This document shows, piece by piece, positions 5,422 to 57,020 of a DNA stretch of 64,000 bases. The notes beneath the pieces are model-generated. The model was given only the letters and a program-made list of their open reading frames with translations. It was not told the DNA's origin and did not search any database. The translations under genes and the position numbers were made by a program. How positions within the stretch are numbered: position 1 is the first letter of the stretch; every line of letters starts with the position of its first letter. Source of the DNA: Eledone cirrhosa (lineage: Eukaryota); the NCBI GenBank assembly GCA_964016885.1, contig OZ024743.1:216442001-216506000 (forward strand), written 5' to 3'.

Positions 5422-5516
5422 ACTCCGACGGCTGAGCTCTGGCCGTTTCGACAGCTAGATCCGGACTATGCCACTAGTATTAGAATAGCAGGAATCTGCT
5501 AAACTTATCAAGGGGT
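5422..5516 (-). ncRNA. Hammerhead motif, U3-A8 core with extended stem II
   Basis: Reverse complement reads ACCCC TTGATAA [gtttagcagattcc...ggatctagctgtc] GAAA CGGC-cagagctca-GCCG TC GGAGT. One mismatch in stem I. Confidence 0.65.
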
Positions 5517-6117
5517 ATATTCCCTATATGGGCGTGGAGCCAAAGCAAACAAAGCATAATAATCTAAGCAAAAAATCCTACAAGTTTATTGTTTTCTTGT
5601 CTGTCACGGAGAATGATCAGTGATCTGGTATGAAGTGTTCATAGTTAAATAACTTTATAGCGGTGGGCGGATAAACAGGCCGAAATACAGCTGGTAAGAG
5701 GAAAGAAGGTGGACTGACCTGAGGATGCCAAGCCAGCAAAGGGTTCACGTACGGCCTTATAAGAAATGTCATCCTATACAAATATCTTTAATCTATAAAA
5801 ATGGTAAAATTCAATTCAAAGGGTTAAAAAAAAATATGAGAGACAGAATATAATTTCAGCATGTAAGAATCAAAGAAGGTAGCGTAGAGTGTTTAAGTTA
5901 TGTTTGCCTAATCTAACACTTCGCTAAAAAGCCCGTCGTTTATAAATATATTGGTAATTTATTTCCTGGTTAAGTGATCTAGTAATTAATTACACTGAGG
6001 CACAGGAAGGGTGCCTCGTACACTAATTTACTTGTTTTTTTCTTTTATACTCAAACACCCAATGTGTGTGTATATATATATATATATATATATATATATA
6101 TATCATGGACTCAATAT

Positions 6118-6250
6118 TGTTCAAATCCCGCCGAGGTTAACTTTGCCTTTCATCCTTATGGGTTGGATAAAATAAAGTACCAGTCACGCACTGGTGTCGA
6201 TTCAATCGACTTTCCCCTCCTCCAAAATTGCTGGCCTTGTGCCTATATAA
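6118..6250 (+). mobile_element. tRNA-derived SINE fragment with Nin/Deu-like core
   Basis: B-box GTTCAAATCCC followed by GCCTTTCATCCTT...GATAAAATAAAGTACCAG; homologous to the 47.2-48.0 kb copies. Confidence 0.75.
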
Positions 6251-6788
6251 AAAACCTATATTGTGTGAGACAATTATGTAGGTTAAGGAATAACTCTTAG
6301 ATACACCCAAACTGCAGGTCAAATTAAAAATGCCAGCATTTCAGATAGGAATAAAAAGATAGATGTTTTTAGAAACAATTACTTACTCAGTCAGCTCAAA
6401 ATTCATTTCAAATCCACGTACAGCTTGGCCTTACCATTATTAACAGCGACTCTATCACCACTACAGCTGCTTGCCGACTCCTTTTATTCCACCGCGCACT
6501 TCTCCGTCTTCCCCTTCCTTACTCTGGTATTACTACCACACCTATCTCCTGTCCCTCCCACCTTCCTCTTCGTCTTTTCCTTTTTCTATTTCTTCCTCTC
6601 CTTCTCCCTTCTCTCCCACACTACTACCAGTCGAAGCCAACGATTTAAACTGTTACCAACTCTGTTGGTCAACACTAACAGAGAACGAAAGAACTTCGGA
6701 CAAAAATATGAACTTGTAAAAACTAAACATTTTTTTTCTCCAATTTATTATTCTTCGTATAAATATGCAATTTAACTGCAACATAGAC

Positions 6789-6843
6789 TTCCGTCCTTGA
6801 AAAGGCATATAAAGCTGAAACCGATACACGGTCAAATGCGGAA
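6789..6843 (+). ncRNA. Hammerhead motif, U3-A8 core, proximal stem I decayed
   Basis: TTCCGTcc TTGAAAA GGC-atataaa-GCT GAAA CCG-ataca-CGG TC aaatGCGGAA. Confidence 0.55.
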
Positions 6844-52766: not shown

Positions 52767-52859
52767 TCCTCTTGATAAGTCGGCAGACCTCACAAAAATT
52801 CTATATATCTGGGATGTAGTGTTTTTGCATAATATGCCACGAAACTACGTAGTCGAGGA
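52767..52859 (+). ncRNA. Type I hammerhead ribozyme, U3-A8 core with extended stem II
   Basis: TCCTC TTGATAA GTcGGCA...TGCCAC GAAA CTACGTAG TC GAGGA. Perfect 5-bp stem I, palindromic stem III, GUC site. Confidence 0.8.
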
Positions 52860-53150
52860 GTCAAGAAGGAGTTTAGGTATGATATATCTTATTATTAATT
52901 ATATGTAATGTTTCTTCTCTCTTCATAATGTATTATATATATATATATACATATATATATATATCAAGGACTGTCTTCAAATCCAGTTCAGATTCATTGC
53001 ACAAAAGGATGTTCAGCTCAAGAGTATAGCTTATAAAAATAGGAATGAAGGCTCTTAAAAGACTGGAAAAGTACTTGCTTTCGGCTACTATATATATATA
53101 TATATATATATATATATATATATATATATATATATATATATATATATATA

Positions 53151-54312
53151 GCGGCGATGAATTAGTTTAGATAGGGCTAGACATAAGATAGGGAAGGCCA
53201 CATCATGGTACGACAAACAGAGATATCAGAGTGTCATGTTTGTGGACGCCACCCCTGGAGGGAAATTAGCTAAACAGTGTAGAAAGGCCCTGAGAAAGAC
53301 CCACTTAAAAATAAAGGTGGTAGAAAAGCCAGGAACCACCATAAAATCCCTGATCAGTAAAACCTACCCTTTTAAGAAAACCCACTGTACCAATAGGAAA
53401 TGTATCATATGTAAGGTGTACCCCCGGATAAACTGTAAAACTAGAAACGTAGTCTATAGCATAAGATGTACAGAGGGTACTTGCAGAAACATGACAATAA
53501 CATACATAGGCGAAACAGCTCGTAGCATAGGTGAAAGGATAGACCAACAGTGGGGGAACTAAAAGGACGAAAAAACGGGTCAGTACTATACGAACATGCT
53601 AGACAACAACATGACGGTAACATAGACAACATAGAAATTAGAATAATATCTAAACATAGGAATGACCCAGCAGATAGGCAAATCAGAGAGGCCAGTGAAA
53701 TAGAAATTAGAAGACCAAAGCTAAACAGAAAGAATGAGTGGAACAACAACACCCAAACAAACAACACTGACCTAAGAGAAGTATAATTAAGTAAATAAAA
53801 TAAAATAAAATAAGATAAATAAATACATACACAAGCACAATAACAACAAGCACATAAACACACACTAGTCACCCAGCAGACACAACACTATACACACTAG
53901 TCACACAGCAAACATAACGCTATACACACACGCAAACGCATGCGCAAAGAAGACAAAATAAAATAAACAAAAAAACAAGCAAATAAATAAATAAATATAT
54001 AGACAGACTGAATAAAAAATGGCGCAGACATACAACACAACAGGAGGAAAAAAATATAACACCACTGACGATGTTGCAGATGTGCAACGAAAGATTTATG
54101 TAAATTATGTAAACTATATATATGTGTTTGTGTCTATATTGTATCTGTATTATTTTTGACCGTCGGTCAGTCAATGGCAACATTGAGGACCGATTAAGTT
54201 AGATCGCAGATATAAAAGACAGCGAGAAGCGAAAACCAACCAAACAGTGAGTGTGTTCTGTTATTAATTCTGGCAATATTACAAAAATATGACCCTCCCC
54301 AAGTATAACAAT
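53151..54312 (+). mobile_element. 5'-truncated PLE: thumb/linker plus GIY-YIG (53236-53786) and pLTR with a hammerhead at 54061-54101
   Basis: MFVDATPGGKLA, CTNRKCIIC, NVVYSIRC...YIGETARSIGER, RQIREA, PKLN. Motif CTGACGA T GTTGCA-gatg-TGCAAC GAAA. (TA)n on both sides. Confidence 0.88.
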
Positions 54313-56407
54313 ATATATATATATATATATTTATATATATATATATATATATATATATATATACATATATATATATGGATGTTTGTCTGTGTGTGTGTGT
54401 GTTTGTTTGTGGAAATCAATAGCAGCTTTTTCGAACTTGTTCTATTAAACATTCCAACTTTCATATCTTTCATATATTCTTGCTGGTACATCAAGTTTAA
54501 TTTTAAACTATAATGTTGAGGATTGTACTAGTAGCCCTATGACAGTATTTTACCTAAAGCGTGCGACCAACTCATCGGTACTATCATCGTTTTTATTGTG
54601 AGGATGAGCTCCTAAAAGTATTGAAACTATAATTGACTACTGAATTTCGGAACGCTAATATTCGCAAGGAAACACAGTACAGGCAATGAAATATAAAATA
54701 TATAACTTAATAAAAAAAAAAGGATCAAAATAAGTGTATACTATAATATACATGAAGGTTTCGTAAGATCAAACCAACATATATATATATTGAACTTTGT
54801 ATAGATCATAAACTTAGACTACACAAAATAAACATTTCATTATTTATTCATTATATTTATTATTTTTAAGTATATTTATTTACATTTTGTATTTGTGTTC
54901 TATTCTTTACTTTCATTTATTTAACGTGGTTCTGTGTGCTTTGGGACATATTTTATTATCGTTTCTTTCTTTTTTTGATTCAATCTTCGCTGAGAGTTTT
55001 GCTCACCAACCACTACTACAAATCGATTTTCGATACGATATTTGTTATGCCGTTTGGTCAGAGGCCAGTATATAAGTGACCTGTCGAGACGTAAGGAAAT
55101 CGAAATTCTATTAACCGATTACCTGTCTGAAGGTGAAATAGATTTATTTCCAGAGTTCGCGAGGAAAATAGATTTCTTAAGCTGTCAAGCCTGGCGTTTG
55201 AACGATTAACGAAGCAAATGACTTCCGGTATTTGCTCAGAAGCTTCCTCATCCTATTTGATTCTATCGTGAACAGAATTACTCCTACCATATGTATGCAG
55301 CTGTGTATTTATGTGTCTGTGTAAGTAAGTATCTGGGTATGTGCATGCATGCACCTTTACCTTTCAAGAATCTGTGTAGAGATATGATTCTATTATAACC
55401 ACTTTCGTATGTATCTCTATACCTGCACATACATACGCACGCATTCTTTCTTATCCCATCTCTCTCTCTCTCTCTCTCTCTATCTCTATCTCTCTCTCTC
55501 TTTCTCTCACCCACTCAAATATACATTTATATCTTAACGCATCATATATATGTGTGTGAGTAAATGTGTCCATACCGTGTGTAGGAACATATATGAGATA
55601 GAAGATGGTAATATCAAAACATATAACTGCACTGACGAAAGTAAAGAAATTAAGGATGAGTTAGAGCGGAATACATATTGCGTGTGTCTCTATATTTGTT
55701 TACTTAACGAAATGCGATACTATTAACTACATAACATTTCAATTTGGCAAATATTTAATCTCTGTTTACTGAATGGTGGCAGATAAGTCACTATTTTGTT
55801 AGAAATATCAGCTTTTCATTTCTGTAAAACACTTCAGTGCTATGACATTCGAAGACTTAAGGAAGTTGATGTCCGTCATATCCATACCAGTAATTGTGGC
55901 CGGGTCGATGCTGTTTTCCCGGAAACATTGGGATTTGGTTTAGAACGTCGAGCAGTAAGGACCTGGTATGAGAAGTCGTATGTAGGTGTTTGACCAACAT
56001 CTTCTGGAATTCGTGAGTGGTTTTAGTTTGCTCGTGATGTATTTCCATTCCAGTTTGAGGAATTGACGGTTCTATTTTCATATATGTAACCACACAATTG
56101 ACACGATATCCCCCAATCAACTCGGTATTATTCGTACATTTTTTTCTTCTTGCTTATTCATTTCTCATTCGATTTTTTTAAAGGATTTAAGACAGGACCT
56201 CAGATTCCCTTTTCTCTAGGGTTTTGTCAAACATGCATCTTTTTTCTTCCCTGTGTGTTGTTTATGTTTTACTTTCTTTAGACTTTTTAAAACCTATTTG
56301 CTCCCTTGTCATTTTGGGACGTACCGATTGTTATATATATATATATATATATATATATATATATATATATATATATATATATATATATATATATATATAT
56401 ATATGAA

Positions 56408-57020
56408 ATAATAGAATATAAAAGAAAAACTAACACAGATATATACATATATGTGTTCAAATCTTAAGGGACCGGATTCGCTAAGGTGAAAAGAATACTA
56501 ACTATAGACAATTGGGTTTGCTTGTCTCAATTTAAGGAAAAATCAAGAAAATAAATACAAACCGGAATTGTGGTAACTACCAATCACCCACACAACTTGG
56601 TTTTGTTTCGCGATGTTAATTGTGAATAGAATTACCAATTCAAGCTCATCAGTGGGTGATGAATTAGTATACTAGACACTTCTAAGTATATTAAGAAACT
56701 GAATAGTGTGCTATATATAATAGCGCACATGGTATCTTAGCCTGTCTCACAAACTTACACCACTAGAAATAGCAGCCAGGTGAGCTTGAATTGGTAATTC
56801 TATTCACAATTAACATTGCGAAACAACACCAAGTTGTCTGGGTGATTGGTAGTTACCACAATTCCGGTTTGTATTTATTTTCTTGATTTTTTCTTAAATT
56901 GAGACAAGCAAACCCAATTGTCTATAGTTAGTATTCTTTTCACCTTAGCGAATCCGGTCCCTTACCATTTGAACACATATATGTATATATCTGTGTTCGT
57001 TTTTTTTTATATTCTATTAT
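56408..57020. repeat. Inverted repeat (56408-56648 and 56781-57020) with a hammerhead
   Basis: About 240-bp reverse-complement arms adjacent to (TA)n. Confidence 0.9.
56583..56660 (-). ncRNA. Type I hammerhead motif with 8-bp stem I
   Basis: Reverse complement reads ATCACCCA CTGATGA GC...GC GAAA CAAAACCAAGTTG TG TGGGTGAT. The right arm (56820-56846) keeps ACAAC/GTTGT and GUC but has lost the 5' core. Confidence 0.72.

Follow-up and report, generated by a model that had tools for sequence, protein, structure and literature searches.

Why should hammerhead ribozymes at the ends of retrotransposons carry a greatly enlarged stem II, and what, if anything, does the extra RNA do? The question is raised by a 64,000-nucleotide (nt) stretch of the Eledone cirrhosa genome (GCA_964016885.1, contig OZ024743.1, positions 216,442,001 to 216,506,000 of the forward strand), referred to here as the window, in which nine such ribozyme motifs are likely associated with Penelope-like elements (PLEs). 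We consider it somewhat probable, judging from the sequence, that the long stem II acts as a brace at five of these nine sites: a strand within it would pair with the bases 5' of stem I, an extra hairpin would present that strand, and cleavage by the ribozyme would trim PLE transcripts.

A type I hammerhead motif was present at all nine of the coordinates at which a preliminary description had placed large stem II inserts (5422, 10377, 18332, 19165, 23569, 32262, 39351, 52767 and 56583), six of them on the minus strand. The motif was read as stem I, CUGANGA or its U3-A8 variant, stem II, GAAA, a near-palindromic stem III, NUH and the closing strand of stem I, and each coordinate marks an end of the ribozyme to within 1 nt rather than the insert. 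Between core and GAAA we counted 55 nt at 5422, 62 at 10377, 62 at 18332, 51 at 19165, 60 at 23569, 81 at 32262, 74 at 39351, 62 at 52767 and 36 at 56583, so that the expansion described earlier as 35-80 nt holds at every site (36-81 nt). The internal hairpin given as an example was also found, with TATAGTTA starting at 19198 and TAACTATA at 19213. The wording that the inserts are structured needs narrowing, as the insert folded alone beats shuffled sequences at four sites (p<=0.02), is borderline at two (0.055 and 0.085) and does not do so at three. A strict six-order descriptor, which fails on damaged copies and on 5422 and 52767, returned six type I matches scoring at least 14 in the window, four of them long, versus 0.08 type I matches per window and no long ones in 12 block-shuffled windows.

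A (TA)n run lies 53-230 nt behind the cleavage site in all nine cases, and the nine type I hammerhead motifs likely mark the 3' ends of PLE insertions. They represent eight families, because 18332 and 52767 are diverged relatives. The core is intact in five of the named copies (5422, 18332, 19165, 39351 and 52767), and the other four have one or two changes each in the core or cleavage triplet: GACA in place of GAAA at 10377, an altered CUGANGA at 23569 and 32262, and GUG as the triplet at 56583. Partial sister copies of 10377 and 56583 carry the intact letters. The stem III palindrome is complete, at 6-8 nt, in six of the nine and holds at four of six positions at 32262, the sister copy of which is perfect, while at 5422 and 56583 stem III is a longer stem-loop. 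Where a family has a second copy in the window, it is for the most part an inverted arm belonging to one and the same insertion, so that these copies say little about conservation within a family and could not be used as family alignments. Rfam gave no hammerhead match at gathering or loose thresholds among the matches listed (150 of 220), a null that is uninformative because ordinary short PLE hammerheads in five of the comparison loci introduced below were equally missed.

Five sites from four families (5422, 18332, 52767, 19165 with its sister copy at 20099, and 56583) share a layout in which a short lower stem II is followed by a strand of 4-9 nt complementary to the bases just 5' of stem I, and then by a variable hairpin; we refer to these as the braced sites. 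The one we rate as the best test substrate is the intact type I motif at 52760-52859 (plus strand; core 52772-52778, 62-nt insert at 52779-52840), in which the lower stem takes up insert nt 1-7, the predicted helix between the stem I and stem II sides (the I/II helix) pairs 52760-52765 with 52787-52792 over 6 base pairs (bp), and the upper hairpin has 13 bp. Its relative at 18328-18425 (plus strand; type I, U3-A8 core 18338-18344, 62-nt insert at 18345-18406) has a predicted helix of 4 bp between 18328-18331 and 18354-18357. On the minus strand, the motif at 5422-5524 (U3-A8 core 5511-5505, 55-nt insert at 5504-5450, GUC site after 5427, one stem I mismatch) is predicted to pair 5524-5519 with 5495-5490 over 6 bp, and the type I motif at 56583-56669 (stem I of 8 bp, stem II of 2 bp, 36-nt insert; GUC in place of GUG in the partial inverted copy) to pair 56669-56661 with 56641-56633 over 9 bp. 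The remaining family comprises the type I motif at 19165-19254 (minus strand; core 19241-19235), whose 51-nt insert contains the hairpin of the preliminary description as a 10-bp upper hairpin and whose I/II helix has five of six pairs, and its inverted sister copy at 20086-20175 (plus strand), where 20086-20091 and 20114-20119 match at six of six.

At the braced sites the helix ends 6-8 nt before C3, and its strand in the insert begins at nt 9-10 in three families and at nt 5 in one. At 52767 and 20099 the layouts agree nucleotide for nucleotide, with the lower stem at nt 1-7, the strand at 9-14 and the hairpin starting at 15; 5422 is offset by one, and in these three, which are mutually unrelated in sequence, the strand occupies the gap between lower stem and upper hairpin. 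At least four potential pairs join the stem I and stem II sides without overlap in four of the eight families, and in a fifth family they overlap stem II. The insert sequences themselves have nothing in common between families. The helix at the braced sites is likely to be the stem I/II helix known to speed other hammerheads. The tertiary-contact module suggested in the preliminary description is supported for five of the nine sites, from four families, where an insert strand complementary to the flank 5' of stem I lies in a shared register.

Different sequences pair in different families, and the sole related pair, 18332 and 52767, retains the same 4 bp. The two inserts are of equal length (62 nt) and identical at 31 of 62 positions, and of the 13 pairs that 52767, taken by itself, predicts for the upper hairpin, 18332 retains 11 (p = 0.012 when transitions occur at the rate observed), two double and four single compensations among them. 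The helix strand falls in the longest run that is invariant between them. Identity is 50-56% in the insert versus 69-74% in the flanks; with the flanks the better conserved of the two, what has been kept in the insert seems to be its shape and not its sequence.

Across the eight families, inserts pair better with their own flanks than with those of other families in an exact permutation over 40,320 assignments, where the choice of copy gives p = 0.033, 0.019 or 0.005 with the insert taken entire, and p = 0.004-0.001 with insert nt 3-22. A rule on the register of the pairing is satisfied by six of ten copies (five of eight families), compared with 3 of 86 cross-family pairs and, among 20,000 random flanks, 576 (2.9%). 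We also considered, and rejected, a pairing between the insert and the sequence 3' of stem I (p = 0.63-0.79 for the adjacent window).

Several observations count against the brace. The register rule and the nt 3-22 window were both set after the sequences had been inspected, a sliding control on other flank windows gave p<0.05 in 6 of 76 cells, two of them below 0.005 (0.0029 and 0.0032, in single settings), and duplexes that tolerate bulges give p = 0.007-0.09. The rule is unmet in three of the eight families, and 10377 satisfies it yet has a strand that overlaps stem II. Within the braced sites, the 19165 copy breaks the helix and the helix at 18332 is just 4 bp, and whole-motif minimum free energy folds are mostly no better than those of shuffled sequences, with several misfolding. 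The retention of hairpin pairs has p = 0.07 if transitions make up 70% of changes, and the hairpin covariation comes from two sequences, with a shuffle control of 66/500. Finally, in our profile and tblastn mapping of the window no braced site could be tied to an open reading frame (ORF), and for this reason their PLE origin and clade are deduced from core type, palindrome, TA flank and inverted arms.

If the brace is correct, pairing of the insert strand with the bases just 5' of stem I would create a pseudoknot that holds stems I and II side by side for cleavage. This helix would replace the contact of loop II with stem I that is absent from minimal PLE hammerheads, and the braced families would have regained a Watson-Crick contact between the two stems. 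All of the I/II helix belongs to the enzyme half, which it would therefore pre-fold whichever way stem III is completed; for a palindromic stem III this may be within one copy or by a second copy in a dimer. In the hairpin past the helix, shape would be what is kept, since it closes the internal loop from which the strand is presented, with its sequence left free. Cleavage would shorten PLE transcripts that are tandem or read through, cutting them close to the end of the element. In published work, stem I/II pseudoknots are common and disruption of one lowered rates 20- to >100-fold (Perreault 2011, PMC3088659), and the same I/II helix is required in hammerheads of type SGC (Eckert 2023, PMC10085705). 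PLE hammerheads have been described as minimal, without tertiary contacts and slow in vitro, and the hammerhead of an anole PLE cleaves only with its protein. With braced versions one could ask directly whether unaided cleavage is efficient in some PLE families.

The other four sites (10377, 23569, 32262 and 39351) have irregular long hairpins, 6-nt palindromes, lower stems of 5-11 bp and, in three cases, damaged cores. At 10377-10473 (minus strand; type I, stem I of 8 bp, GAAA damaged in this copy), the 62-nt insert is a long hairpin, and a 6-bp flank helix overlaps stem II and is doubtful. The hammerhead-like motif at 23568-23656 (minus strand; damaged core, 11-bp lower stem II, 60-nt insert) lies at the 3' end of an insertion of the Hydra clade of PLEs, and its inverted copy at 30233-30321 (plus strand) has a damaged core as well. 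In the hammerhead-like motif at 32240-32372 (plus strand; damaged core 32268-32274, 81-nt insert at 32275-32355), flank 32240-32262 can form an interrupted 18-pair duplex with approximately 32312-32333. At 39351-39468 (minus strand; type I, U3-A8 core 39447-39441, 74-nt insert, inverted copy with its core at 40906 on the plus strand), a 12-bp helix is possible between flank 39468-39457 and positions 39384-39373 on the 3' side of the insert, with a geometry that differs from the braced layout; at -16.4 kcal/mol this helix dominates the predicted fold and competes with the insert's own arm. The flank duplexes of 39351 and 32262 engage the insert in its distal parts and, on our reading of the geometry, would be incompatible with the active fold. 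The four sites are likely to be simple tolerated hairpin extensions, and any flank pairing at them is more likely to produce an alternative, inactive fold.

The best of the competing explanations is that stem II has grown neutrally. Loop II would tolerate insertions, and errors of the PLE reverse transcriptase (RT) during fold-back or template switching would add hairpins and short inverted copies of the flank, leaving the insert unselected. Most insertions here are indeed flanked by inverted duplications, the inserts show no similarity between families and range from 36 to 81 nt, four of nine copies are damaged, and related Hydra elements manage with 11-31 nt. For the four long-hairpin sites this explanation is probably correct. 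It fails, however, to predict either a single register across unrelated families or the equal length and the 11 of 13 pairs kept at 50% identity in 18332 and 52767, and as a general account of the inserts we regard it as unlikely.

More doubtful is an off-switch, in which a hairpin between flank and insert around CUGANGA would form first during transcription and delay cleavage; release would come with refolding of the RNA, by either the PLE protein or a partner copy. The dominant 12-bp helix at 39351, the interrupted 18-pair duplex at 32262 and the dependence of the anole ribozyme on its protein are all in keeping with such a switch, but at the braced sites the helix strand is clear of stems I and II and connects them at one and the same end, an arrangement found in active SGC and CSG ribozymes; as an explanation of the inserts we regard the switch as improbable. 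Least probable of all, and unsupported by the inserts, is the protein-binding or aptazyme-like regulatory module of the preliminary description, whether a docking site for the PLE RT and endonuclease (EN) or a natural aptazyme: engineered aptamers are usually placed in stem II, 18332 and 52767 have kept the shape of their hairpin, and a PLE protein aids cleavage in another family, but no motif or sequence is common to the families, the related inserts are less alike than their flanks, and the RT of the anole element starts at a stem-loop downstream of the ribozyme rather than at loop II. A search of Rfam with two of the inserts at a loose threshold gave no match.

Returning to the length of stem II, the earlier premise that typical PLE hammerheads have a short one agrees with the alignment of Cervera 2014 (PMC4209133), which shows short stems II only, with the Hydra list of Craig 2021 (PMC8557442), and with our own tabulation, in which 13 of 13 measure 11-31 nt. 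The Cervera 2014 descriptor allows a stem of 3-7 bp and a loop of 3-10 nt, so that nothing above approximately 24 nt could be found with it, and all nine sites fall outside it. For comparison, a profile of 22 Hydra-like proteins was used to collect ten loci (L001-L010) from genome contigs by protein homology. The tabulated lengths come from the 13 distinct hammerheads in L002-L010, scoring 19.4-26, and two more recognised by eye have 12 nt; eight weak descriptor matches (L003, L004, L006 and L007; score 10.2-14.6), with spacers of 24-61 nt for type I and 57-112 nt for other orders, had been dropped as likely chance before the tally. In the window, 9 of 16 listed motifs have at least 35 nt (Fisher p = 0.0012), on a list that is partly hand-picked, includes two relatives and spans more than one clade. 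Short forms (12-31 nt) coexist with the long ones, for example at 4271, 14644, 20948 and 38734. A long stem II in a PLE hammerhead is not unprecedented, since two spike-moss PLE-X1 ribozymes in Craig 2021 have loops II of 29-35 nt. We also observed a family with an intermediate stem II of 30-31 nt and no flank helix (20940-21005 on the plus strand, 7415 and 62459 on the minus strand), the insert at 62459 being shortened, and a stem II of 31 nt in L003. The Hydra-like retrotransposons with hammerheads at L001-L010 lie on contigs in the records of bacterial metagenome-assembled genomes and are probably mis-binned animal DNA.

Compared with known systems, the nine sites resemble the minimal metazoan PLE hammerheads (PMC4209133) in their type I order, U3-A8 variant, palindromic stem III, AT-rich context, many families per genome and likely position at the element end, and differ in having 36-81 nt where at most about 24 nt is allowed and in the predicted I/II helix. 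The sites at 23569 and 39351 share with the Hydra-clade hammerheads (PMC8557442, File S2; L001-L010) the 3' end of an element with a DKT-type RT and GIY-YIG domain and a (TA)n target, and the 39351 motif also has the U-U pair at the base of stem II; in contrast, those listed are all short, and 23569 and 39351 have 60 and 74 nt. The spike-moss PLE-X1 ribozymes, labelled 'deviates from canonical structure' in File S2 of Craig 2021, allow by eye a 5-6 bp complement between flank and loop in both examples, but they are two examples from a plant, belong to EN-minus elements, and no pseudoknot is proposed for them there. Pseudoknotted hammerheads (PMC3088659) likewise connect the sides of stem I and stem II through a Watson-Crick helix and can have a 2-bp stem II, as at 56583, but in the passages compared they are mainly prokaryotic or viral, plus human C10, were studied in vitro, and come with no mention of PLEs or an extra hairpin. 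Types CSG and SGC (PMC10085705) have a long stretch between core and GAAA and an I/II helix at the same two positions; the CSG cleavage strand lies inside the long loop, whereas that of the nine sites lies downstream. The idea that the nine inserts hide a cleavage block as in type CSG was rejected, because the stem I partners lie downstream in nine of nine and the named sites that were detected score as type CGS; CSG matches in the six-order scan scored no more than 12.6 and lay away from the named sites. Among the sources compared, we found no published pseudoknotted PLE hammerheads with a long stem II and no permuted hammerheads of the Naiad PLEs; Lunse 2017 and Arkhipova 2017 lay outside the comparison and may bear on this. 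PLE hammerheads, pseudoknotted hammerheads and long loops II are each known, and their combination looks new. The braced forms have probably been missed so far because they fall outside both the descriptors used to count PLE ribozymes and Rfam.

An I/II helix is also predicted in a second arrangement. The predicted split-core hammerhead at 1925-1995 (plus strand; descriptor score 25.8, cleavage predicted after 1945) runs in the order stem II 5' strand, I/II strand, cleavage block, GAAA block, I/II strand, stem I 5' strand and, last, CUGAUGA, with helices of 6 bp (II), 4 bp (III), 6 bp (I) and 5 bp (I/II). A tandem second copy 534 nt downstream, at 2459-2529 (plus strand; score 24.2), has a weaker I/II helix. 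The descriptor was composed after the motifs had been seen; the best of 200 shuffled windows reached 22.2, a weak third match in the window scored 16.4, and L001-L010 contained none. As modelled, both motifs are predicted to fit an undescribed split-core order with the break after A9, and 1925-1995 fits none of the six orders in PMC10085705 because CUGANGA is parted from the stem II strand, which is assumed there to be impossible. The helix sequences differ from those of published elements. We noted by eye that the 12 nt before each of the two motifs match the same place in published Octopus Naiad 3' ends, and that the bases after the split core could fold back onto it as an inhibitory hairpin.

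Craig 2021 (PMC8557442) describes Naiads as being without canonical hammerheads and notes half-cores 35-50 nt apart. We read the 3' ends of approximately 16 Naiad consensi (Craig 2021 File S5) by eye only. In four of these (Parc, 3_Nbra, Hpol and Smim) a complete hammerhead of type CSG could be recognised, its cleavage strand contained in the long loop, and the four have I/II helices of roughly 8, 9, 11 and 16 bp at the same two positions as in the braced sites; Obim, Ovul, 3_Chem and 2_Movir were read with CUGANGA last and parted from the stem II strand, and the remaining consensi gave no clear reading. Eckert 2023 (PMC10085705) found no more than two CSG sequences. It is conceivable, though we would stop short of calling it probable, that PLEs harbour a so far hidden hammerhead series with a single stem I/II helix as its foundation and loop II freed for cargo. 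The series would comprise the type I forms seen here, with a hairpin as cargo, type CSG forms, with the cleavage strand itself, and a seventh, split-core topology in which CUGANGA comes last (1925-1995). If so, Naiads would have permuted hammerheads, and ribozyme counts for invertebrate genomes would fall well short. The missing canonical hammerheads of Naiads, a stated puzzle, become testable with RNAs of approximately 75-110 nt, which could add a topology excluded by current schemes. Two clam Naiad 3' ends from the same File S5 share a motif that we take to resemble the twister ribozyme.

The window as a whole is AT-rich (mostly 30-45% GC) and rich in (TA)n runs and retroelement fragments, and some of its elements resemble published Octopus PLEs by eye. 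Hydra profile matches were obtained at 26314-28550 and 40062-40736. The first is a broken ORF (minus strand) encoding an RT with a DKT motif, found in 27822-28565, and, at the C terminus, a GIY-YIG domain; the best relatives carry RW(K/R) and DKT, and a search for longer proteins using 27822-28565 gave no match. The 3' arm of this insertion extends down to approximately 23514 and is repeated inverted at 28566-30375. The second is an RT-thumb/GIY-YIG remnant (minus strand) that shares its strand with the 39351 ribozyme and lies some 600 nt upstream of it. Judged by the marks of the Hydra clade (DKT and RWK motifs, and at the C terminus a GIY-YIG domain without CCHH), both appear by sequence to be Hydra-clade PLEs. 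Two of the nine ribozymes (23569 and 39351) lie at the 3' end of a Hydra-clade insertion; the other seven are solo ends followed by (TA)n, and no ORF remnant was found with them.

Further Hydra-clade remnants were mapped by profile and tblastn at 13369-14255 (plus strand) and 12152-13068 (minus strand), together with a Hydra-type endonuclease remnant at approximately 37960-38235 (plus strand), behind which no hammerhead was found. Remnants at 53161-53741 (plus strand) and 58800-59915 (minus strand) were mapped in the same way and are presumably Neptune-like, a label based on their motifs. We considered 52767 as the end of the remnant at 53161-53741 and rejected it, as that remnant has its own short hammerhead at 54065 (by eye). 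Pfam gave two matches among 12 ORFs of the window, to endonuclease/phosphatase and RT domains, neither in the PLE fragments; non-PLE retroelement remnants at 45403-45732 and 48469-48834 (minus strand) have RVT_1 and endonuclease/phosphatase matches below cut-off. An inverted pair at 7833-7978 and 8335-8495 carries a GAAA-palindrome-UA block and no recognisable core; it may be what is left of a long hammerhead after much decay. A short element present in several copies, with a hammerhead whose stem II has 14 nt, occurs in nested inverted arrangements at 2605-3913, 38396-39300 and 61172-62282, and no ORF remnant was found for it. Within one arm of the Hydra-clade insertion, at 24793-25385, a (TA)n run contains an inverted pair of Neptune-like ends with short hammerhead motifs.

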